Shown piece after piece: positions 53,712-64,000 of a stretch of 64,000 nucleotides of DNA; within the stretch, counting starts at the first letter, position 1; each line of letters begins with the position of its first letter. The notes beneath the pieces were generated by a model. It was not told where the DNA came from. It did no database searches and saw nothing but the letters and a program-made list of their open reading frames with translations. The stretch spans positions 19 through 64,018 of the forward strand of contig CAZFEF010000002.1 in NCBI GenBank assembly GCA_964517555.1, read 5' to 3'. This DNA comes from an uncultured Gammaproteobacteria bacterium (GTDB taxonomy: Bacteria; Patescibacteriota; Patescibacteriia; Patescibacteriales; UBA12465). The position numbers were made by a program, and so were the translations under genes.

Positions 53712-53802
53712 GGAGAAGTCGCATAGTTGGTCTAGTGCGCCGCACTCGAAATGCGGTTGCCGGGAAACCGGCTCGTGGGTTCGAATCCCACCTTCTCCGC
53801 CA
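53712..53802 (+). tRNA. tRNA-Ser (anticodon CGA), CCA encoded
   Basis: Acceptor GGAGAAG/CTTCTCC, anticodon loop CTCGAAA, a long variable arm (TTGCCGGGAAACCGGCTC), T-loop TTCGAAT and 3' GCCA. Confidence 0.9.
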
Positions 53803-53874
53803 AGACAATTTTTTATCGTGCAGACCCGAGTAACCGTGATTTAGTTGCGACTCGACTGCCTAAAAGATTGCTAA

Positions 53875-53904
53875 CAAAAAACAACGATTTTGATCGTTGT
53901 TTTT
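53875..53904. terminator. Bidirectional intrinsic terminator
   Basis: AACAACGAT-TTTG-ATCGTTGTT 9-bp stem with A6 before and T6 after, between tRNA-Ser and the recombinase 3' end. Confidence 0.7.
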
Positions 53905-53912
53905 TGTTTAAT

Positions 53913-55235
53913 TTAATCTTCTATCAAAGTCAGTTTTTTATCTTTATACATTATTTTTGATCTCAGATTGGCTAGTAGCTCTCGCTTTTCAGATACCGCC
54001 CCTTCCTTTAATAAATATTTGGCATAATTTCTGATATCCATTTCTTTATCAGTTTTAAGTTTTTCTGTCGCACCAAGTACCGATCTTTGAAAGATGTCAA
54101 ATCGAGCTATTTCATCCTCTAGTTTTTGCCTCATTCCTAACTCGTTAATATTTACTTTATCTAATATTTTAAGTAATTCAGTAATAAGTTCTTCTTCTCT
54201 GATGTATTTATTTTTACAGTTTCTGTCTCTGGCTCTTGAACATGAATAGTAAATATATCTGGCATGCGTGCCATCTTTTAGTTGTTTATATTTTTCTTCT
54301 GCCGATATGCCCGATCCGCAATGACCACAGGTAAATAGTTTGGTAAAGGCAAATTCTCTATTTTCTCTAACAATTTTATCTCTTTTTAACTGTGCCTGAG
54401 CTTTTTCAAATAAGTCTTTATTTATTATCGGCTTATGTTTTCCCTGATACCAGTTACCACTACCAACTGGTCTTTCAAATACCCCATAATAAAAAGGGTT
54501 ATCTAGTATTCGATATACCCCGGCCAGTGTTAATGGCTTATTGCCTCGGGTATAGAAGTTTAACTCGTGTTTAAGGTAATTATATAATTTCCGACCGCTA
54601 TATTTTTCGTAAGCTACTTTTTCAAACATTTTCTTAATAGCAGGCGCTCTTAATGGATCAATTATCACTTGGCATTTTTTGTCCATTCGTTTTTGGTTCA
54701 AATATCCCAGTGGAGCAAGTCCAACCCATAAACCCATTTCAGCTCTAGTTCTTAATCCTCGTCTGACATTAATTCCTCGATTATCATTTTCTAACTTGGC
54801 TTGTGATCCTAAAATCATAAGCAGAAATTTCTCGTTTGGATTATTAGAGAATTTCTGACCATATGTCCTAATCTCTAGCAGGGCGCCGCTATCCATTAAA
54901 TCCACTATTTTCCCTAAGTCCCCAGCATTGCGAGATATGCGGTCGGGAGCCCAAGTCAAAATGGCGTTAAATTTACCCTCTTTGATTTCGTCCACAATCT
55001 CATTAAAGACTGGTCTTTGACCTGTTTCTTTGGCGCTGTGCGATTCTCGCTTTAATTCGACCACATCTAGGCCTTCTCGCTCGGCCAGCTCAAGCATCTC
55101 CTTTATTTGGCTATCTATTGACAAAACCTGCCTTTCCTCGCTTTCGGTCGATTTTCTTGCATAAAGGCAGTATTTTGCCTTAATTTGAGGCTCTATTTTG
55201 CCCTGAGTCCCAATGGGCATTAATGTTGTATTCAT
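53913..55235 (-). CDS. Large serine recombinase (integrase-type)
   Basis: 440 aa. It has a resolvase-type catalytic N-terminus (YARKSTESEERQVLSIDSQ), a recombinase domain, a Cys-rich zinc-ribbon region (CGHCGSG...YYSCSRARDRNC) and a coiled-coil tail. Confidence 0.85.
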   Translation of the reverse strand: MNTTLMPIGTQGKIEPQIKAKYCLYARKSTESEERQVLSIDSQIKEMLELAEREGLDVVELKRESHSAKETGQRPVFNEIVDEIKEGKFNAILTWAPDRISRNAGDLGKIVDLMDSGALLEIRTYGQKFSNNPNEKFLLMILGSQAKLENDNRGINVRRGLRTRAEMGLWVGLAPLGYLNQKRMDKKCQVIIDPLRAPAIKKMFEKVAYEKYSGRKLYNYLKHELNFYTRGNKPLTLAGVYRILDNPFYYGVFERPVGSGNWYQGKHKPIINKDLFEKAQAQLKRDKIVRENREFAFTKLFTCGHCGSGISAEEKYKQLKDGTHARYIYYSCSRARDRNCKNKYIREEELITELLKILDKVNINELGMRQKLEDEIARFDIFQRSVLGATEKLKTDKEMDIRNYAKYLLKEGAVSEKRELLANLRSKIMYKDKKLTLIED

Positions 55236-55373
55236 ATTACCAACATTAATGACGCAACAATTCGAAGGAGTCTAGAGCGCCTCGAGTAGATAAACTGTAG
55301 GTAACTTTTATTGAATAATTGCTAAAAAATACATGTCATGTAGCTTTATTACAGTATCATCATTGTGTGCCTA

Positions 55374-55401
55374 TTGACTTTTATTTTATTTATGCTATAC
55401 T
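55374..55401 (+). promoter_or_regulatory. Promoter of the R-M/defence operon
   Basis: TTGACT, 16 nt, TATACT, 8 nt, then ATG(55410). Confidence 0.55.
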
Positions 55402-55409
55402 ATCTATGT

Positions 55410-55991
55410 ATGCAGAAACAAACAAACAAACAACTTAAAGAGATTGCCGAAGTTATTCTGGGCTACACCTTTCGCTCTAAACTTGAAAAACAAGCAGACG
55501 GAGATGTTTTGGTGCTTCAAGCCAGGAATATTATCGAGGATCTTTTAATTAAAGAAGATGATTTATTGCGGGTTGACCTCGGCAACAACAGAACTAACGC
55601 CTTTGCTAAAAATGATGATGTTGCATTGTCTTCACGTGGCAGCTTTAAGGCTGCTGTTATGAAAACTGATTCGGATTCAGTTATTGCGTCATCTTCTGTT
55701 TATTTATTAAGACTTAAAACAGACAAAGTATTGCCGGAGTATTTAGCAATATATTTAAATTCAGATTTTTCTCAAAAACAAATTAAAGAAAAAATAACCG
55801 GAGTTGTCATTAATGCTTTATTAAAAAGAAACGTTGAAGAACTAGAAATAGTTATACCAAACGTAAAAGCTCAGAAAAAAGTTATATCGATTTACTATAA
55901 TAATCTGCTTTATCAAAAATTATTAACAAAAAAGCAGTTACTTAATAGTCAAATTAATAAAGAACTTATCAATAAATTAATAAATTCTTAA
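55410..55991 (+). CDS. hsdS: Half-size Type I restriction specificity subunit (single TRD + conserved helix)
   Basis: LKEIAEVILGYTFRS..LQARNI is an HsdS TRD entry motif, and the C-terminal helical region is IPNVKAQKKVISIYYNNLL. I chose the start at 55410 because the GTG at 55365 lies upstream of the promoter. Confidence 0.6.
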   Translation: MQKQTNKQLKEIAEVILGYTFRSKLEKQADGDVLVLQARNIIEDLLIKEDDLLRVDLGNNRTNAFAKNDDVALSSRGSFKAAVMKTDSDSVIASSSVYLLRLKTDKVLPEYLAIYLNSDFSQKQIKEKITGVVINALLKRNVEELEIVIPNVKAQKKVISIYYNNLLYQKLLTKKQLLNSQINKELINKLINS

Positions 55992-55995
55992 AAAT

Positions 55996-57510
55996 ATGTC
56001 TACGAACAAAATTACCCAGCAAGATCTTAATAAAATTCTTTGGGCTGCCGCTGACTCCTCTCGTATTCAGGTTGACGGCGGTATTTATAAGGACTACGTC
56101 TTAGCGATGTTGTTTTATAAATATTTAAGTGACTTATCAAGAAAGCAGCATGAAAAATATCGTGAACGCTTTGGTAGTGATGAGGCTCGTATTGCTGAGA
56201 AGATGAAAATTGACCGTTTTTATTTGCCACCAAAGACTTCTTTTGATTATATTTTTTCCTTAAGAGAGAAAGATAATATCGGTGAAGAAGTTAATAAGGC
56301 TCTGCAAGCTATTGAAGATACTAATCGCAGCAAATTAGAAGGTGTTTTTAGTATTGATTTTAATTCGGAATCTGTTCTTGGAAAACTAGAAGAACGTAAT
56401 CGAATGTTGCGCCATTTGATTGATGATTTTTCTAAAATTGATTTAAGTGAAATTGATGACGAGATTATTGGTAATTCCTACATGTACATGATTGAGAAGT
56501 TTGGAGCGGATGCTGGCAAAAAAGCGGGGGAATTTTTTAGTCCAACCCCAATCGCAACTTTACTTGCTCGTCTCGCCCAACCAAAAGATGGCAATAGAAT
56601 AGCTGATCCGGCTTGTGGTTCTGGTGGATTACTATTATTAGCTGGTCGCGAGGTGGAAAAGCAAGGTTCAAAGAATTATGCCTTGTATGGCCAAGAAAGC
56701 ACCGGTTCCACCTATCAATTAGCCCGAATGAATATGTTTCTTCATGGTAAGGATTCGGCTCGTCTGGAGTGGGGTGATACTTTAAATAACCCATTATTAG
56801 TTGAAGATGATAAGTTGATGAAATTTGATACGGTTATAGCAAATCCCCCGTTTTCGCTTAAAAAATGGGGTGCTGAAAATGCTGAGGCTGATAAATACAA
56901 GCGATTCTGGCGCGGAGTGCCCCCTAAAGATAAAGGTGATTTTGCTTTTATTACTCACATGGTGGAAACAGCTAAGCCAAAGACTGGTCGAGTAGCTGTT
57001 ATTGTCCCTCACGGTGTCTTATTTCGCGGCGGCACAGAAGGCAAAATTCGCGAAGCATTACTCAGAGAAAACATTATCGATGCTGTTATTGGTTTGCCGT
57101 CTGGCTTATTTCAAACAACAGGCATCCCAGTTGCTATTTTAATTATTGATCGTTCTCGCGAACATGGTGGTGAGAATGAAAATAAAAAAGATGTTTTGTT
57201 CATTGAAGCTTCAAAAGAATTTAAACCAGGCAAGGCACAAAATACCTTAGCTGAAGAAAATATTGAGAAAATCTACAGCACTTATGCTAAACGTAAGGAT
57301 ATTGAGAAATTTTCTAGGAAGGTTGATTTTAAAGAAATCGAGGAGAATGATTTTAATTTAAATATTACTAGATACGTTGATACTTTTGTGGAAGAGGAGC
57401 CCGTTGATATAAAAGCTAATTTAAAAGAATTGGAGGAACTTGAACCAGAATTACAAAAATTAGAGAAACAGATGGCTGAGTATTTAAAAGAACTTGGAAT
57501 AAAATCATGA
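55996..57510 (+). CDS. hsdM: Type I restriction-modification N6-adenine DNA methyltransferase subunit
   Basis: 504 aa with the HsdM N-terminal domain (LWAAADSSR), motif I DPACGSGGLL and motif IV NPPFS. Confidence 0.9.
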   Translation: MSTNKITQQDLNKILWAAADSSRIQVDGGIYKDYVLAMLFYKYLSDLSRKQHEKYRERFGSDEARIAEKMKIDRFYLPPKTSFDYIFSLREKDNIGEEVNKALQAIEDTNRSKLEGVFSIDFNSESVLGKLEERNRMLRHLIDDFSKIDLSEIDDEIIGNSYMYMIEKFGADAGKKAGEFFSPTPIATLLARLAQPKDGNRIADPACGSGGLLLLAGREVEKQGSKNYALYGQESTGSTYQLARMNMFLHGKDSARLEWGDTLNNPLLVEDDKLMKFDTVIANPPFSLKKWGAENAEADKYKRFWRGVPPKDKGDFAFITHMVETAKPKTGRVAVIVPHGVLFRGGTEGKIREALLRENIIDAVIGLPSGLFQTTGIPVAILIIDRSREHGGENENKKDVLFIEASKEFKPGKAQNTLAEENIEKIYSTYAKRKDIEKFSRKVDFKEIEENDFNLNITRYVDTFVEEEPVDIKANLKELEELEPELQKLEKQMAEYLKELGIKS

Positions 57511-57514
57511 AATT

Positions 57515-58762
57515 ATGAAGGATATAACTCTACTAACAGTAAAAAAAACCAAATCTAAGGAATCTTTTAACCTATCTTTAAAAGGAAAAGACACGGGTTT
57601 TTTAGTTTTAGAAAAATTTACTAACGGCAATATAACCAGATATCCATTTTATAATTCATTTGGAACCATAAAAAATAGGTATGCTTCTATAAAAAGGATC
57701 ACCACAACCGGAGGTAAAAAGCCCGCTTCTGGTATATCTGTAAATATTTCAGGTGGGTTTGGTTTTACCAAACCAAAAGGGGTTCAAGATTTGTTCTATT
57801 TTTTTCAAGAAAAATTTCCGGACATTGAAGAGGTTGTATTTATTGAGAAAGGAAAAACGGAAATCAAGAACAAAAAACTTTATATTCTCTTGTCAGATTT
57901 TCATAAAATTGAATATAGTGCTCAGAAAAATAAAGAAAAACAGAATAAGGAATTACGTCAAACTCATCAGAATATTTTTAATTCTATATTACCAGCAAAG
58001 TTTAACGTAGCCCCTAAAATTCAATACACGGAGAATGATTTGTCTAACTTTTTTAATAAATACGACATTGATCAGATGAAGTTGTCTGTGGATGACTCAA
58101 GTATTATAAAAACTTTTATTGATAATAAAATTTTAAGCAAAGAAATACTATTATCATCAAAAAATCAGATAGACACGCTTTATGTTGAGGATATCTTATT
58201 GCAATATAAAATTTTGATGAGCAAAAACACTAAGGAAGAAGATTGGCAAGAATTTTTTAATAAGAATAATTGGATTTTTAGTAATGTATTTTATTTTCCC
58301 GTTTCATTTACAAAGGATAAGTTTAATGTTGGCGGTAATAACATTAATGAAACAAATAATGATAAAATTGTAGATTTTTTATATAAAAACCATTTAACTG
58401 ACAACTTAGCTTTTATAGAGATAAAAACAAACAAAACACCTCTTGTAATGAAAACACAATACAGAAAGGGAATATTCCCAATCAGTAAAGACATTTCAGG
58501 GTCTATAATCCAAGTTCAAGATCAAAAGAATGAATTACTTAAAAATTTTCATTCAAAGCTGGGTCAATCAGGTTTGCAAATTTCCAATTCTCAATGTGTA
58601 GTTATTGCCGGCAGCTTAGATAAATTAACTCAAAAACAAAAGAGTAGCTTTGATTTATTTCGATTATCAAACAAAGAAGTGTTGATTATAACTTTTGATG
58701 AATTGTTGAAAAAGATTGAAACCACATTAGGACTTTTTAAAAAGAAGTCAAAATTGAAATAA
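57515..58762 (+). CDS. DUF4263/Shedu (SduA)-like PD-(D/E)xK nuclease with an uncharacterised N-terminal domain
   Basis: The C-terminal third matches my memory of the DUF4263 pattern: EEDWQEFFNKNNWIF; D287 (IVDFLY); E302-x-K304 (FIEIKT); IIQVQDQ; and VVIAGS...LIITFDELL. The gene is squeezed between hsdM (4-nt gap) and hsdS (1-nt gap). Confidence 0.6.
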   Translation: MKDITLLTVKKTKSKESFNLSLKGKDTGFLVLEKFTNGNITRYPFYNSFGTIKNRYASIKRITTTGGKKPASGISVNISGGFGFTKPKGVQDLFYFFQEKFPDIEEVVFIEKGKTEIKNKKLYILLSDFHKIEYSAQKNKEKQNKELRQTHQNIFNSILPAKFNVAPKIQYTENDLSNFFNKYDIDQMKLSVDDSSIIKTFIDNKILSKEILLSSKNQIDTLYVEDILLQYKILMSKNTKEEDWQEFFNKNNWIFSNVFYFPVSFTKDKFNVGGNNINETNNDKIVDFLYKNHLTDNLAFIEIKTNKTPLVMKTQYRKGIFPISKDISGSIIQVQDQKNELLKNFHSKLGQSGLQISNSQCVVIAGSLDKLTQKQKSSFDLFRLSNKEVLIITFDELLKKIETTLGLFKKKSKLK

Positions 58763-58763
58763 T

Positions 58764-59996
58764 ATGAAAAGTGACCAGAAACAAAAAAATATCCCAAATG
58801 ATTGGGCGGAAGTCGGACTTGCTGATATCGGTAGTTTTTCGAAAGGAGCAGGTATTTCAAAGGATCAGTTAGTTAATAATGGGAATAACGCTGTTCGATA
58901 TGGCGAGCTTTATACTACGCATAATTTCCAAATAAAAAAAATTTATTCTTTTATACCAGATAAAATCATTCCCGAAACTAAAAAAATAAAATATGGGGAT
59001 ATATTATTTGCTGGATCTGGCGAAACTATAGATGAGATTGGCAAATCGGCGGCATATTTATTAAAAGAAGATTGTTATGCTGGTGGCGATTTAATTATTT
59101 TTAGCCCAAAAGATGCAAATAGTTTATTTTTGTCATATTTTTTAAACGTTGGAGAGGCTAGAAAAAAATTACGCGAGCTCGGTCAGGGACAGTCAATAGT
59201 ACATATTTATAAGAGCGATATAGAAAAATTAAGGGTTCATTTGCCATCTCTTTCCGAGCAAAATCGCATTGTTTCAGTTCTTGGAACGTGGGATAAGGCT
59301 ATCGAAAAAATGGCGAAGAAGATTGAGTATAAAAAAAATATTAAAAAAGGTCTAATGCAACGATTGATGGCTGGTGAACTTCGGCTGGTTGGATTCAGTA
59401 ATCCATGGCAAACATTAAAATTGGGGCAAGTAATAGAAAATTCCGGTGCTCGAAATAAAAAATTAAAATACAAAAGAGTGTTGAGTGTTACTAATAAGCA
59501 CGGTTTTGTCTTACCGGAAAATCAATTTGCTAGAGTTATTGCTAGTGAAGACCTTTCAAATTACAAAATTGTATTCAATGGTGAGTTTGCTTACAACCCG
59601 TCCCGTATTAATGTTGGATCAATTTCTAGGTTAGATAAATTTGAAAATGGTATTCTAAGTCCAATGTATATCGTATTCAAAACAAAGCCTGAAGTTAGCT
59701 CAGACTATATTTTTCATTGGATTCATTCCTCGGAAGCAAGAGGCAGAATAAAAAGTTGCGTCAGTGGATCCGTTAGAGAAAGTGTTGATTTTAAAAGTTT
59801 GGCCTCAATAAAGATTAAACTACCCTCTTTTGCGGAACAAGAAGGTATTGCGGCTATATTAAATAAGGCTGATAAAGAAATAGTATTACTAAATAAAAAA
59901 CTAAAACAACTTAAAGCGCAAAAGAATTATCTACTTAATAATCTGATTACTGGCGCCGTTAGAACGCCTGAAATGATGAAAATAAAATCACAATAA
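58764..59996 (+). CDS. hsdS: Type I restriction specificity subunit (two TRDs)
   Basis: 410 aa with two TRDs. Each is followed by a conserved helix (LPSLSEQNRIVSVL and LPSFAEQEGIAAIL). Confidence 0.85.
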   Translation: MKSDQKQKNIPNDWAEVGLADIGSFSKGAGISKDQLVNNGNNAVRYGELYTTHNFQIKKIYSFIPDKIIPETKKIKYGDILFAGSGETIDEIGKSAAYLLKEDCYAGGDLIIFSPKDANSLFLSYFLNVGEARKKLRELGQGQSIVHIYKSDIEKLRVHLPSLSEQNRIVSVLGTWDKAIEKMAKKIEYKKNIKKGLMQRLMAGELRLVGFSNPWQTLKLGQVIENSGARNKKLKYKRVLSVTNKHGFVLPENQFARVIASEDLSNYKIVFNGEFAYNPSRINVGSISRLDKFENGILSPMYIVFKTKPEVSSDYIFHWIHSSEARGRIKSCVSGSVRESVDFKSLASIKIKLPSFAEQEGIAAILNKADKEIVLLNKKLKQLKAQKNYLLNNLITGAVRTPEMMKIKSQ

Positions 59997-59997
59997 T

Positions 59998-62900
59998 ATG
60001 ATCGAAGCAAATTTTGACGAAGCCAGACAATCACAATTAACATTTATTGAATTGCTGCTGGCAATGGGTTATAAATACATCTCAACAGAAGATGTTTTTA
60101 AGGAACGCCGGGGCGATTTGTCTAAGTTCATTTTGCGAGATATTGCTTTTGAAAACCTTAGCCGTATTAATAGCTATGAATATAACGGAGAGCAACAAGC
60201 TTTTAGCGACAAAGATGTCTGGGAAGCTATAGATGAGCTTGAAAATATGCAATTAGAAGGGCTGATAGACACTTCAAGAAAAGTCTATAACATGATTATG
60301 CCAACTTCTGGAGGGAAAACTATTAAAGTGCTTCATGGCGGCAAAAGCGGTTCTTACAATTTTCGCTTTATTGATTTTGAACACCCAGAAAATAACACTT
60401 TTCATGTAGCGGCCGAATTTGTAGCTAGTGGGAAAGGTAATATTCGTCCTGATATCGTTTGCTTTATTAATGGCATTCCTTTTGTCGTTATTGAAAACAA
60501 AAAGTCCGGCGTAGACGTTAAGGAGGCATTGTCTCAATTAAATCGCAATCAAGGTATTGAATATTGTCCTAAACTATTTATCTATCCGCAGTTACTTATT
60601 GGTACTAATGGTAAAGATATTCGTTATGGCACAACAGGTACTCCTAATAAGTTTTATGCCACTTGGAAAGAAAAGGAAATTAATGAGGTTGAATTTAATC
60701 AGAAAGTGAAAAATTTAATTGCCACCCCCGTTAATGTCGAAGTGTATAAGAAAATTTTAGAAGATTTAAATGGTGCCGCTTCTAATCATAAACAAAAGAT
60801 TGATCGTTTAGTAACTGAGCAGGATTTAGGCGTAGTATCTCTGCTTGAACCGGATCGCCTTTTAGATTTAACAAAAAACTATATTATTTATGACGCTGGA
60901 ATTAAAAAAATAATGCGCTATCAGCAATATTATGCAGTCCACAAGATATTAAAACGAATTGAAGAAATGGAAAATGGTACAAACCGCCAAAAAAGGAAAG
61001 GCGGTTTGGTATGGGCAACTCAAGGAAGTGGAAAATCTTTAACAATGGTGATGTTTATTAAAGCTTTAATTGAACATCCTCACATCATTAATCCGCGCGT
61101 TTTAATAGTAACTGACCGTGTAGATTTAGATAAACAGATTTCCGAAACATTTAGTAACTGTGGCCTCAAGAAAAAAGTTACCCGGGCTACTAGTGGTGGT
61201 CATTTATTAAAATTAGTTCAAGAAAAGAATCTCGATGTAATAACTACATTAGTTCATAAATTTGAATCAATTAGTAAAAAAAGAGCTGGTTTTATTGACG
61301 AATCAGAAAACATTTTCGTTTTGGTTGATGAAGCTCATCGCACTCAAAATGGTATTGCTAACTTAGAGATGAATAGAATTATTCCTAACGCTTGTTATAT
61401 TGGTTTTACGGGCACACCTTTAATGAAGAAAGAAAAAGCTAGTTGGCTTAAGTTTGGTAGCTACATTGACAAATATACTATTGATGACGCCTTAGCTGAT
61501 AAAATTATTTTACCTCTCATTTATGAAGGACGTTATGTTCCGATGACTCAAAATAAAGAACAAATTGATCGTCATGTTGAGAGAATATCAGAAGGTTTGA
61601 GCGATAACGCCAAGAAGAATTTACAAAGAGAAGTTAAAGCCAAAATTATTAAAAACAATCCTCAGGGTATTGAAGAAATAGCTTATGATATTGAGAAGCA
61701 TTATATAGAGCAGTTTCAAGGAACTGGCCTAAAGGCACAGATAGTCGCCCCATCAAAATACGCCGCTGTTTTATTTCAAAACTATTTTAAAAATAAAGAC
61801 ACCATTAAGACTGCTTTGGTTATTTCTGACGAATCAGGAAATAGTGAAGAGGATGATATCCATAAGAAAGATGTTGAAATGTATTTATTAATGCTAAAAA
61901 ATAAATATCAAAATATCAAATCTTACGAAAATGCAGTTATTGATAGTTTTAAGTATGATGATGAAGGTGTTGAAATATTAATAGTGGTCGATAAACTTCT
62001 CACTGGTTTCGATGCCCCTTGCGATACAGTTTTGTATTTAGCTAAGGACTTGCGTGATCATAACTTACTTCAAGCTATCGCCCGTGTTAATCGTTTATTT
62101 GAAAATAAGAAGCTCCCAAAGACTGCGGGCTATATTATCGATTATTCAGAGAATGCTAAGAACTTAGATACAGCGATGAAACTTTTCGGCAACTACGATG
62201 AAGATGATGTTAAAGGCACATTAATTGACGTCAAAGAAAAGATTGATGAGTTGGAAAAGAGTTTTTCTGTCGTTCATGACTTATTTAAAGACGTCAAAGA
62301 TCAAAAAGATGATGAGGAATATTTGAATCGTCTGCAAGATAAACCAGATAGGGATGTTTTCTATAAGGCACTCAATGAGTTTATTAAAAATTTTAATGAG
62401 TGCTTAGTTTTGCAGGATTTTGTTCATGAATTTAAACATGTTGATGTTTATAAAAATCAGCTTAAGAAGTTTTTGGAGCTAAGAAGCTCGGCAAGTTTGA
62501 AATACGCCGATAAAGAAGACTTATCTGAATATAAATTAGCGTTGGTTAAAATTTTAGATAAATATATCGACGCTGAAAAAGTTGAATTATTAACAAAACA
62601 AATTAATATTCATGATGCAGATAGCTTCAATCAGGTAATTGAAGAATTGGGTTCTAATAAATCTAAGGCTGAAGCCATTGCTACCCAGACGCAAAGAACA
62701 ATTACTGAAAAAATGGATACCGATCCAGAATTCTACCATCGTTTTTCTGAGAAGGTTGATTCAATACTTAGAAAATTAAGAGAAGGAAAACTAGCTGATT
62801 TAGAGGCGCTTCAGCAAATGAAGTTAATTAGCGACCAAGTTATTAATAAAAAAGATACTGAGGTTCCAGAAGAAATTCAAGCTAAAAAAGGGGCTGATGT

Positions 62901-63180
62901 TTTTTATCGCAACCTTCATTCGATGTTTGGAAAATATAATTTAACTGAATCACTGTATATTCAAATTATCGATGGCATCTGTGATATCTTAAATGCCGAA
63001 GCAATTGTTGATTGGTACAAAAATCCGGAAGTTAAACGTGTAATGCAAAATAAAATTGATGACTATCTTTATGATGTTGTTGGCCAAAACCTAGGTGTTA
63101 AGTTGTCTAATGAAGATTTGCAAAAAGCAGTCCAAGAAATAATGCAGCTGGCCGAATACAATTATGATATATTTGATTAA
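59998..63180 (+). CDS. hsdR: Type I restriction endonuclease/translocase subunit
   Basis: 1060 aa with an N-terminal nuclease region (..D..VIENKK, PD-ExK-like), SF2 motor motifs ATQGSGKSLTM and DEAHRTQ, and a helical C-terminus. Confidence 0.9.
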   Translation: MIEANFDEARQSQLTFIELLLAMGYKYISTEDVFKERRGDLSKFILRDIAFENLSRINSYEYNGEQQAFSDKDVWEAIDELENMQLEGLIDTSRKVYNMIMPTSGGKTIKVLHGGKSGSYNFRFIDFEHPENNTFHVAAEFVASGKGNIRPDIVCFINGIPFVVIENKKSGVDVKEALSQLNRNQGIEYCPKLFIYPQLLIGTNGKDIRYGTTGTPNKFYATWKEKEINEVEFNQKVKNLIATPVNVEVYKKILEDLNGAASNHKQKIDRLVTEQDLGVVSLLEPDRLLDLTKNYIIYDAGIKKIMRYQQYYAVHKILKRIEEMENGTNRQKRKGGLVWATQGSGKSLTMVMFIKALIEHPHIINPRVLIVTDRVDLDKQISETFSNCGLKKKVTRATSGGHLLKLVQEKNLDVITTLVHKFESISKKRAGFIDESENIFVLVDEAHRTQNGIANLEMNRIIPNACYIGFTGTPLMKKEKASWLKFGSYIDKYTIDDALADKIILPLIYEGRYVPMTQNKEQIDRHVERISEGLSDNAKKNLQREVKAKIIKNNPQGIEEIAYDIEKHYIEQFQGTGLKAQIVAPSKYAAVLFQNYFKNKDTIKTALVISDESGNSEEDDIHKKDVEMYLLMLKNKYQNIKSYENAVIDSFKYDDEGVEILIVVDKLLTGFDAPCDTVLYLAKDLRDHNLLQAIARVNRLFENKKLPKTAGYIIDYSENAKNLDTAMKLFGNYDEDDVKGTLIDVKEKIDELEKSFSVVHDLFKDVKDQKDDEEYLNRLQDKPDRDVFYKALNEFIKNFNECLVLQDFVHEFKHVDVYKNQLKKFLELRSSASLKYADKEDLSEYKLALVKILDKYIDAEKVELLTKQINIHDADSFNQVIEELGSNKSKAEAIATQTQRTITEKMDTDPEFYHRFSEKVDSILRKLREGKLADLEALQQMKLISDQVINKKDTEVPEEIQAKKGADVFYRNLHSMFGKYNLTESLYIQIIDGICDILNAEAIVDWYKNPEVKRVMQNKIDDYLYDVVGQNLGVKLSNEDLQKAVQEIMQLAEYNYDIFD

Positions 63181-63189
63181 ATAATTATC

Positions 63190-63891
63190 ATGGAAACATT
63201 TATTTACGGGAAACATCAATATAACTACAAGCTATTGCGATTAGATCGTAAAACTTTGAGTTTGACCGTTTTGCCCGATCTATCTATCGTGGTGCGTTGC
63301 CCTATAAAAGCAAAGCGGGATCGTATTGATGCTTTCTTAAAAAAGAAATGGTTATGGTTAGAGGAGCAAATTAAGTACTTCAAAAAATATCAGCGTAAAA
63401 ACACAAACAAAGAGTATGTTTCCGGAGAGAGCTTTTTATATCTAGGAAGACAATATAAGTTAAACATTAAAGCCTCCAGTGTTGACTCAGTGTCGCTTAA
63501 TAAGGGCGTTATAGTTTGTAATACCACTGATTCTGCCAAAAATAATTCCAGTATTAGAAACTTGATTAATAAATGGTACTTAGAAAAGGCTAAATTGATA
63601 TTTTCTGAACGTTATAATGAGGTGTTTGGGCGTTTTAATTATAACAATAAACCAAAGTTGTCTATTAAAAAGATGGATAAACGTTGGGGTAGTTTCGTTA
63701 GAGGAAAGAGCATAATTCTAAATCCATTGTTAATACAAACATCTAAGGACTGCATAGATTATGTCATTACTCATGAACTCTGCCACGTCAAATATCGTGA
63801 TCACAGTAAGACTTTTTATAAGTTGTTGAGATCTAAGTGTCCGGGATGGGAAATTATTAAAGAGAAGTTGGAAACAAGATTAATAAAATAA
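63190..63891 (+). CDS. YgjP/DUF45-type zinc metallopeptidase (HExxH)
   Basis: 233 aa. ITHELCHVKYRDHSKTFYKLL is the family signature, and the gene lies 9 nt downstream of hsdR. Confidence 0.75.
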   Translation: METFIYGKHQYNYKLLRLDRKTLSLTVLPDLSIVVRCPIKAKRDRIDAFLKKKWLWLEEQIKYFKKYQRKNTNKEYVSGESFLYLGRQYKLNIKASSVDSVSLNKGVIVCNTTDSAKNNSSIRNLINKWYLEKAKLIFSERYNEVFGRFNYNNKPKLSIKKMDKRWGSFVRGKSIILNPLLIQTSKDCIDYVITHELCHVKYRDHSKTFYKLLRSKCPGWEIIKEKLETRLIK

Positions 63892-63924
63892 ATATATGAA
63901 TCTAAAAAAATTTTGCAAATAAAA

Positions 63925-63959
63925 AGAACGTATAACCTTTAGCTAAGATGATACGTTCT
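63925..63959 (+). terminator. Hairpin after the operon (no T-run)
   Basis: AGAACGTAT / ATACGTTCT 9-bp stem with a 17-nt loop. Confidence 0.35.
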
Positions 63960-64000
63960 GGAGGGTACCCCTTTTGTTAGACACATTGTCTATGGAGTTC

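Follow-up and report, generated by a model that had tools for sequence, protein, structure and literature searches.

A probable serine-recombinase island at a tRNA-Ser gene of Patescibacteria carrying a Type I restriction–modification operon with an embedded Shedu nuclease

The tiny genomes of bacteria of the candidate phyla radiation (CPR, or Patescibacteria) seldom encode CRISPR, and these bacteria are believed to depend on restriction–modification (R-M) systems. How such systems come to sit in these genomes is the question raised by one end of a 64,000-nucleotide (nt) stretch of DNA, here called the window (GenBank assembly GCA_964517555.1, contig CAZFEF010000002.1, positions 19 to 64,018), from a bacterium that GTDB places in the Patescibacteriota. 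Directly behind a tRNA-Ser(CGA) gene lie a conserved sequence block (the arm), a gene for a large serine recombinase (LSR) and a six-gene operon in which a Shedu nuclease is embedded among Type I R-M genes. We regard this block as very probably a compact integrative island of ~10.2 kb, running from 53803 to just past 63991, inserted at the 3' end of tRNA-Ser(CGA), moved by its LSR and carrying defence genes as cargo. Its foreign composition, the identities of its genes, the recurrence of the unit at another tRNA-Ser gene and the association of LSR, arm and tRNA-Ser are direct observations. A first-pass annotation had proposed a horizontally acquired defence island at this tRNA, with a recombinase and a composite Type I R-M system, and that proposal is upheld by composition, by comparison with relatives, by the linkage of LSR, arm and tRNA and by the recurrence of the unit. 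The features concerned are as follows; contigs and loci used for comparison carry L numbers, and att denotes attachment sites.

53712-53802, plus strand: tRNA-Ser(CGA), the probable integration target and left half of attB; intact, CCA encoded (ARAGORN; Rfam tRNA, 58.6 bits)
53803-53860, plus strand: element arm abutting the tRNA 3' end, AGACAATTTTTTATCGTGCAGACCCGAGT...GCGACTCGACTGCC (nhmmer match 53803-53831, E = 0.001)
53873-53908, no strand: inverted repeat with perfect 16-nt arms around a 4-nt loop, flanked by an A-run on one side and a T-run on the other (repeat search, 100% complementary)
53913-55235, minus strand: LSR, 440 aa, reading toward the tRNA (Pfam PF00239, PF07508, PF13408)
55236-55409, no strand: divergent intergenic region with a promoter-like TTGACT-16-(TG)TATACT at 55374-55401 (consensus scan)
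55410-55991, plus strand: half-size HsdS, 193 aa (PF01420, E = 8e-11, in one stretch, comprising one target recognition domain (TRD) and a C-terminal helical region; PADLOC Specificity_I)
55996-57510, plus strand: HsdM, N6-adenine methyltransferase (PF02384, E = 3.9e-98; PF12161; PADLOC MTase_I, E = 3e-123)
57515-58762, plus strand: Shedu nuclease SduA, between hsdM and hsdS (PF14082, E = 2e-22; PADLOC SduA PDLC00384, E = 1.8e-63)
58764-59996, plus strand: full HsdS with two TRDs, 410 aa (PF01420 in two stretches, E = 5.9e-26; PADLOC Specificity_I, E = 1.5e-84)
59998-63180, plus strand: HsdR restriction and translocase subunit (PF04313, PF18766, PF22679, PF04851; PADLOC REase_I, E = 4e-146)
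63190-63891, plus strand: YgjP-like (M48/SprT-type) HExxH metallopeptidase (PF01863, E = 5.3e-52; HELCH at residue 195)
63925-63959, no strand: inverted repeat AGAACGTAT-N17-ATACGTTCT closing the operon module, with the module breakpoint at 63959/63960
63960-63991, plus strand: far-end arm GGAGGGTACCCCTTTTGTTAGACACATTGTCT, 28 nt of it at 89% identity to the last bases of contig L001
63992-64000, plus strand: ATGGAGTTC, closing the window, with 6 of its 9 nt matching CGTGGGTTC in the T-arm of the tRNA

The block stands apart from the rest of the window in composition. GC content is 0.4155 for positions 1-53802 and 0.3358 for 53803-63991 (z = -10.4 against core windows of equal length, which range from 0.397 to 0.428), and GC at third codon positions is 0.25-0.36 in all seven island genes, under the minimum of 0.379 among 23 core open reading frames (ORFs) of at least 250 aa. 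The GC drop that the first-pass annotation had counted by hand therefore appears in both computed measures. Its description of everything up to 53.7 kb as core housekeeping also holds where tested, because the one other lower-GC stretch, at 38-43 kb, is the replication origin region. Relatives of the RluB-like protein encoded beside the tRNA are found solely in Patescibacteria (Falkowbacteria-like), at no more than 55% identity. Their gene order is rluB, tRNA-Ser(cga), a variable interval of 0.7-9.3 kb and tRNA-Asp(gtc); the interval holds ordinary genes, for instance those for an HD-domain protein, an RND efflux pump, iPGM, RNR, an M23 peptidase and GNAT. In the comparison with insertion-free relatives that had been suggested as a check, recombinase and R-M genes proved absent after tRNA-Ser(cga) in all ~14 syntenic relatives.

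The recombinase belongs to the LSR class, as originally described, with Resolvase, Recombinase and Zn_ribbon_recom domains and a YARKS motif at residues 25-29, in which Ser29 is the presumed catalytic residue. Its closest solved structure is the SPbeta integrase SprA/YokA (9dxh, E = 2.4e-17). The gene lies 110 nt from tRNA-Ser, and an intact tRNA at one end with an integrase inside is the arrangement by which Islander recognizes tRNA-gene islands. No record matched the LSR protein exactly; more than 8000 homologs were detectable. The top 120, at 81-99% identity, come from Parcubacteria, Magasanikbacteria, Colwellbacteria, Paceibacterota and others, hosts whose core proteins are only about half identical. 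We examined 80 metagenomic LSR loci, with host assignments resting on the titles of metagenome-assembled genomes, and 44 of them have a tRNA downstream of the LSR. In 43 of these 44, the nearest tRNA in that direction is a tRNA-Ser convergent to the LSR (anticodons gct, cga, gga, tga and 'act'); the remaining locus has a tRNA-Asp in this place. The distance from LSR to tRNA is 109-127 nt in seven loci and 0.8-6.6 kb otherwise, and many of the contigs terminate at the tRNA-Ser. LSR relatives also occur on 34 viral contigs of IMG/VR, where more distant ones (43-66% identity) are convergent to tRNA-Asp, Glu, Gln, Trp or Asn in 12/12 loci with a downstream tRNA. Arms in the viral loci (L186, L195, L199, L201, L202, L205, L206) share (A/G)CGACC ~15-25 nt from the tRNA end. 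The tRNA specificity seems to switch between LSR subclades.

What this family carries is dominated by R-M genes. A scan of the 6 kb upstream of the LSR in ~40 loci covered 109 ORFs, and the most frequent Pfam families were N6_Mtase 11, Eco57I 10, N6_N4_Mtase 8, Methylase_S 6, HsdM_N 6, ResIII 5, HSDR_N 4 and C5 methylase 3, together with MmeI and Type ISP domains. In L089, whose LSR is 90% identical to that of the window, a different Type I system is present, again with YgjP after HsdR. Some elements (the cargo side of L089-L157) carry heavy-metal P-type ATPases (HMA, E1-E2_ATPase), DsbD_2 and, in two cases, a large terminase, so the family is not exclusively a carrier of defence genes.

The link between LSR and tRNA-Ser is made by the arm. 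Its consensus, GACAAnTTnnTATCGG...GACCC, stands directly behind tRNA-Ser, and an arm block in this position recurs in 43 metagenomic loci, in L169 and in four viral loci. The invariant junction block reads CTCCGC[CAA/ATT]GACAAnTTnnTATCGGnnnGACCC, and CTCCGC[CAA or ATT]GACAAnTTnnTATCGGnnnGACCCGAnT is often followed by a second GCGACCCGAGTG. An nhmmer profile of the arm finds one strong copy per locus, in constant orientation to the LSR and located at the tRNA or at a contig end. We propose that 53803-53860 is the element-side half of attL (the P' arm). Rfam matches the tRNA only and no known RNA in the arm. A covarying hairpin within the arm was considered and rejected, as RNAalifold predicts 0 pairs. 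Near-identical arms adjoin tRNAs with different T-arms and acceptor strands (L129, L137, L091, L124, L157); this argues that the tRNA body is that of the host and that the crossover lies near the extreme 3' end. Between arm and LSR, the perfect inverted repeat at 53873-53908 looks like the bidirectional terminator that the first-pass annotation had placed after the tRNA, here separating tRNA and recombinase. Hairpins of a similar kind, AACAAAAA..., occur in other loci with ~110-nt spacing; a terminator scan of the region gave no excess over chance.

Comparison of junctions also bears on the encoded CCA, which the first-pass annotation took to fit a 3' end re-supplied by an integrated element. 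tRNA-Ser(CGA) is indeed the only tRNA in the window to encode CCA, although ARAGORN and Rfam agree on nine tRNAs rather than ten. Most of the others encode no part of the CCA end. The full CCA is also present on tRNA-Ser(cga) in 5/14 island-free syntenic relatives, so it is not by itself proof of integration. All 14 syntenic tRNA-Ser(cga) genes (L004-L023) encode at least ...CCGC (G73 plus C74), and these CCGC or CCA ends may be a lineage trait or the footprint of past integration and excision. L116 and L127, however, share the same tRNA-Ser(tga) 3' half and differ in the triplet after CCGC (ATT versus CAA) and in the arm, from which it follows that the three bases after CCGC travel with the element. 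The CA of the encoded CCA is thus probably supplied by the element, which leaves the earlier suggestion plausible for these two bases while the CCA as such is not diagnostic.

Several loci hold tandem or miniature arms: L140 (15841-15934, 17891-18052), L095 (12861-12890, 13324-13428), L106 (12446-13565) and L145 (6489-6655, 9518-9587, 12156-12225). Some of these copies come with orphan T-arm/acceptor fragments, and some consist of an arm only, ~60-110 nt long and free of cargo. These copies may be non-autonomous derivatives mobilized in trans, or they may record successive integrations.

The whole unit recurs elsewhere. In the Parcubacteria loci L169/L170 the order is tRNA-Ser(tga), arm, DUF4238, LSR, half HsdS, HsdM, SduA, HsdS, HsdR, YgjP and a ParB-methylase region; LSR and six-gene unit are thus found at another isoacceptor and in another neighbourhood. 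The six genes are also present in the Nomurabacteria loci L171/L172. For the copies in L169 and L172, identity to the window is 78-80% for HsdM, 77-81% for SduA, 80.5% for the LSR (present in L169), 65-67% for HsdR and ~55% for YgjP. The S subunits have diverged much further, to 35-36% (half HsdS, 195-199 aa in the two loci) and 32% (full HsdS), while keeping their lengths, as one would expect of two specificity subunits that both function and diversify. In Nomurabacteria a 73-aa ORF and a 278-aa Bro-N protein lie between hsdS and hsdR (L171 11365-12470; L172 9972-11077) and a 108-aa ORF lies between half hsdS and hsdM; the operon accepts insertions at several gene junctions.

Turning to the operon itself, the six plus-strand ORFs are separated by gaps of 4, 4, 1, 1 and 9 nt, and their spacing and the order of their products agree with the first reading of six same-strand genes with gaps of 1-9 nt. 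PADLOC, run as the defence-system check proposed at that stage, identifies MTase_I, two Specificity_I, SduA and REase_I. HsdM has motif I (DPACGSG, residue 204) and motif IV (NPPF, residue 283) of a gamma-class methyltransferase. HsdR combines HSDR_N, SWI2_SNF2 and T1R_D3 domains, with nuclease residues D152...E166-N-K168 and the motifs GSGKS and DEAH. Type I R-M is therefore represented by its HsdM motifs, a two-TRD HsdS and an HsdR with nuclease and superfamily 2 translocase, and the catalytic motifs of LSR, HsdM, HsdR, SduA and YgjP are all intact. YgjP trails HsdR in L169 and L172 as well as in L089.

Upstream, the half hsdS most likely starts at ATG 55410 rather than at GTG 55365, because the independent assembly L086 calls a protein of 193 aa. 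The -10-like hexamer ends 8 nt before this ATG; with this start the promoter-like site lies upstream of the gene, and the mRNA would be leaderless or nearly so. A promoter-like site is thus present, as the claim of one promoter driving all six genes requires, but the region has no more of them than shuffled sequence (40 against an expected 40.3), and the single promoter is suggested by gene spacing.

The embedded gene had been described as a DUF4263-like nuclease, which was right as to nuclease and understated the match, as the protein is a full Shedu SduA. Its PD-(D/E)xK core, D287...E302-I-K304, is that of a Shedu nuclease, with D287, E302 and K304 invariant in 42 homologs, and residues 223-405 align with Bacillus cereus SduA (PDB 8ti8, E = 4e-30). 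In an AlphaFold model (pLDDT 80) the C-terminal half matches only Shedu structures in Foldseek (8ti9, 8ti8, 8ps4, 8ps5). The N-terminal 220 residues are modelled confidently as a beta-rich domain and a long helix. Residues 1-220 have no match in Pfam or Foldseek, including to any described type of sensor domain; this does not exclude Shedu membership, because Shedu N-terminal domains are known to be diverse. Only 84 homologs were detectable; close relatives among them (76-98%) come from CPR, and those at 44-47% identity are solitary genes in other defence islands.

Where the island ends is read from contigs of other samples. Three Logan contigs from other runs, L001 and L003 among them, match the window at 100% as far as 63959, where they part from it. 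Past this point L001 has another 5.2 kb with an unknown 307-aa protein, an OB-fold protein, a PF13022 helix-turn-helix (HTH) protein, a ParB_N-N6_N4 methylase and DUF5677, and its terminus, ...TGGAAGGTACCCATTTTCTTAGACACA, is 89% identical to window positions 63958-63985; because of this match, both cargo variants share a terminal arm of ~32 nt. The left arm opens with the 7 nt AGACAAT, and the far-end arm carries their reverse complement, ATTGTCT, as its outer 7 nt. It is around these points that contig ends gather (L084 at 53803, L086 at 63988, L001 at ...GACACA, the source contig at ~64,031). A post-YgjP region with the ParB_N-N6_N4 methylase, the terminase-small-subunit-like PF13022 HTH, an OB-fold (tRNA_anti-like) protein and DUF5677 is seen in L001 (1148-6075) and L169 (15702-18326). 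In L001 the R-M operon is 100% identical to the window over the overlap and the terminal arm only 89%, a mismatch that suggests exchange of modules between elements.

The final ATGGAGTTC probably begins a tRNA 3' fragment, or a mimic of one, that resembles a T-arm and belongs to the attR side. Comparable T-arm/acceptor fragments adjoin arms in L140, L095, L180 and L145. In these four, of which L180 is a 56-kb viral contig, a degenerate T-loop/acceptor mimic ending in C(A/T)CCGCCA precedes the GACAAT arm with no real tRNA there, which suggests an attP made of a tRNA-3' mimic plus arm. True attR is probably situated ~30 nt further on than the window reaches. The direct repeat that the first-pass annotation had expected as attR, a copy of the tRNA-Ser 3' half, did not materialize, as neither the window nor L001 has a match of 14 nt or longer; a conserved arm marks the tRNA end, and no long tRNA repeat flanks the island. 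Self-BLAST of the junction in the 44 loci gave mostly nothing at the far end, a search for inverted copies of the tRNA-side arm at far ends (regex and nhmmer) found the tRNA-side copy alone, no convincing orphan T-arm fragments were seen on the cargo side, and the best Logan contigs halt at 63988 or enter the other cargo variant.

Some of these observations, and a few others, weigh against an LSR-moved island. No empty site, excised circle or complete attR was recovered, with the window stopping ~9 nt and its contig ~40 nt past the far-end arm. BLAST did not find the far-end arm in the 80 metagenomic LSR loci, and de Bruijn contig ends are only suggestive as a sign of population heterogeneity. 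The crossover position is ambiguous: arms of the same subtype stand beside differing tRNAs, whereas orphan T-arm fragments accompany the arms of L140 and L095. The element has no conjugation or packaging genes. Finally, in L171/L172 the six genes occur without LSR or arm and away from tRNA-Ser, so the cassette can reside outside an LSR element.

A rival reading is a decayed prophage or phage satellite: after the loss of its structural genes, an integrase of phage origin (the LSR) would have remained, together with the R-M/Shedu operon as moron or accessory cassette. This variant of the island interpretation, differing in origin and route of transfer, draws on the IMG/VR contigs with LSR relatives, on a Terminase_6N among the cargo ORFs, on the ParB_N-N6_N4 methylase and PF13022 HTH genes that follow YgjP in L001 and L169, and on the Bro-N gene inside the L172 operon. 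We nonetheless consider it unlikely, as the window element has no phage structural, lysis or replication genes and only LSR and operon between its arms; moreover, the commonest LSR cargo is R-M genes rather than phage genes, and IMG/VR calls on short contigs can be false. Far less room remains for a recombinase that acts as an invertase or resolvase, switching specificity between the two hsdS genes of a phase-variable Type I system. A recombinase beside a Type I locus with two hsdS does resemble hsdS shufflons and invertons (PMC7672463), and some sources label LSR homologs 'DNA invertase Pin-like'. The two S genes, however, lie on the same strand and show no similarity that BLASTP can detect (E = 0.12), nor are they linked by any significant repeat, inverted or direct, the longest repeats in the block being 70-80% AT-rich chance matches; a shufflon is excluded on these grounds. 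The protein is also a 440-aa, three-domain LSR rather than a small invertase, and the same LSR occurs with entirely different cargo, so we give this idea next to no credence.

Two further readings concern the locus rather than the enzyme. The block might be old and vertically inherited, its low GC due to function or relaxed selection and its LSR domesticated beside tRNA-Ser. The closest genomes are so distant (RluB at most 55%) that absence from the syntenic site is weak evidence, and the GC skew of the block matches its replichore. Against this, LSR, HsdM and SduA are 77-99% identical across lineages with core proteins ~50% identical, the unit occupies more than one tRNA-Ser isoacceptor and more than one neighbourhood, the same operon has other downstream cargo in other samples and tandem arrays of arms exist; vertical inheritance is very improbable. 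Nor do we put much weight on a chimera of assembly or binning that joined another organism's island at a repeated tRNA sequence. Assemblies do break at these tRNAs and arms, and the LSR is multi-copy and near-identical in metagenomes, but the independent assembly L085 (SRR30898479) crosses rluB, tRNA, arm and the LSR 3' end at 100% identity and L086 runs from the LSR 5' end through the operon to 63988, likewise at 100%, which makes such an artefact highly unlikely.

For the integrative island we propose the following mechanism. The LSR would recombine attP of the element with the 3' end of chromosomal tRNA-Ser, presumably catalysing the reaction as a dimer of dimers and leaving the tRNA functional, as in established LSR biology. 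attP would consist of a degenerate T-arm/acceptor mimic ending in CCGCCA followed by the arm GACAAnTTnnTATCGG...GACCC; in circular form it would read ...GTTAGACACATTGTCT, the T-arm-like mimic ending in CCGCCA and then AGACAATTTTTTATCG..., with a crossover probably near the CCGC core. The predicted outcome is an intact tRNA with the arm directly behind it and a T-arm-like fragment at the far end. Further copies could then enter at the regenerated tRNA and move earlier ones away from it, which would account for the tandem arms of L140, L095, L106 and L145. GGGTTC of the tRNA T-arm appears to mirror GACCC of the arm at about equal distance from the junction, which would let subclades retarget by changing acceptor-proximal contacts alone.

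Once installed, the sole cargo, one operon, is predicted to provide layered defence against phages and plasmids. HsdM and HsdR would be served by two specificity subunits and so probably have two specificities. The full two-TRD HsdS, as M2S(full), would recognize an asymmetric bipartite target. Half-size S subunits are known to dimerise, giving palindromic specificities (PMC3874165), and the half HsdS probably does the same, as M2(S-half)2, for a palindromic bipartite target. With HsdR, both complexes would restrict unmethylated DNA, as expected from Type I biology (PMC3874165). Shedu would add a second, sequence-independent nuclease layer. Since end-sensing by E. coli Shedu is reported, to go by the title of Loeff et al. 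2025 as cited in PMC12409362, functional coupling of Shedu to the Type I enzyme through HsdR-generated ends is an attractive hypothesis.

More broadly, a large LSR clade of CPR and viruses might target tRNA 3' ends by subclade (Ser; Asp, Glu, Gln, Trp, Asn), read the T-arm together with the acceptor end and be the main vehicle of R-M and defence genes across distant CPR, with the island in the window a minimal and apparently complete example and its Shedu perhaps activated by HsdR DNA ends. We advance this generalization tentatively, at somewhat short of even confidence.

Set against known systems, the operon itself is a variant of a described architecture. Type I R-M operons with embedded defence genes are known (PMC12255303, PMC11411939, bioRxiv 10.1101/2024.01.29.577857), among them the RRDM island of enteropathogenic E. 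coli (EPEC), RptR-HsdM-HsdS-DarTG2-HsdR-M48 peptidase (PMC12255303), TgvAB in V. cholerae VPI-2 (PMC11411939), PrrC, and the cases of 'guilt-by-embedding' (bioRxiv 10.1101/2024.01.29.577857). Like EPEC RRDM, the window has a horizontally acquired Type I operon with an unrelated defence gene embedded and an M48/YgjP-type peptidase trailing, and the constant place of YgjP after HsdR is common to both. Unlike RRDM, in which the insert lies between hsdS and hsdR, SduA is placed between hsdM and hsdS; a half HsdS takes the first position instead of an RptR repressor, and no small HTH ORF is present in 55236-55409; and the host is a CPR bacterium and the carrier an LSR element rather than DNA flanked by insertion sequences. 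The first-pass annotation was thus right that the locus is more elaborate than a textbook hsdRMS, but because operons that combine Type I genes with an embedded defence gene and an M48 peptidase at the end were already described, the architecture is not new. Shedu goes unmentioned in the text of the Payne preprint (bioRxiv 10.1101/2024.01.29.577857), and a literature search of incomplete coverage found no paper on Shedu inside Type I operons or on tRNA-targeting serine integrases. SduA itself shares with the Shedu proteins of Bacillus cereus and E. coli (8ti8/8ti9, 8ps4/8ps5) the DUF4263/SduA_C core and the VDFLY...IEIKT block, and differs from them in its first 220 residues, which match neither solved sensor domain, and in being embedded in an R-M operon.

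The unusual part is the carrier, a seemingly tRNA-targeting serine integrase clade that mostly carries R-M genes. Like the tyrosine-integrase islands at tRNA genes collected by Islander/TIGER (PMC4383910), the island has an intact tRNA, a nearby integrase, accessory cargo, tandem accretion and a probable tRNA-3'-like fragment at its far end; unlike them, its integrase is a serine recombinase, with no Phage_integrase domain in the block, and no long direct repeat flanks it. According to PMC4383910, tRNA genes are not targets of serine integrases, and PMC5704250 describes these enzymes as integrating within genes. With staphylococcal cassette chromosomes (SCC, as in SCCmec/CcrAB) and phage LSRs (SPbeta SprA, phiC31, Bxb1) the island shares an LSR of Resolvase-Recombinase-Zn ribbon type. 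It resembles SCC further in entering a conserved housekeeping gene at its 3' end and leaving that gene active, in tandem arrays and in modular cargo, and differs in its target (a tRNA gene, where SCC uses rlmH), in its single recombinase gene, in its CPR hosts and in its mainly R-M cargo. For Patescibacteria, R-M systems on genomic islands have been noted, with no mechanism given (PMC12455944).

Two sets of side observations concern the surroundings. The origin region at 39335-43805 comprises YidC (39335-40096, minus strand), an AT-rich gap of ~900 nt (40097-41005), DnaA (41006-42403) and DnaN (42669-43805), with the cumulative GC-skew minimum at ~42-43 kb; the island lies only ~12 kb from dnaA, with its operon co-oriented with replication. 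In the CPR loci ARAGORN also calls tRNA-Ser genes with anticodon ACT, often beside tRNA-Ser(gct), and an unmodified A34 in a Ser tRNA is unusual for bacteria. They lie at L091 9394-9482, L099 11432-11521, L103 13821-13910, L106 12516-12605, L126 12190-12277 and L185 15941-16028; those of L103 and L106 carry the element arm.

A conserved and promiscuous carrier of this kind would explain how R-M/Shedu cassettes can be 77-81% identical across lineages whose core proteins are ~50% identical. If the broader reading is true, it corrects the general statement that tyrosine integrases alone use tRNA genes, the LSR becomes of interest to LSR-based genome engineering, and the short universal attB at the tRNA-Ser 3' end offers a landing-pad tool for organisms that are nearly intractable genetically. 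The operon, for its part, is a natural test of cooperation between Shedu and a Type I system, and of two S subunits sharing one M/R core.

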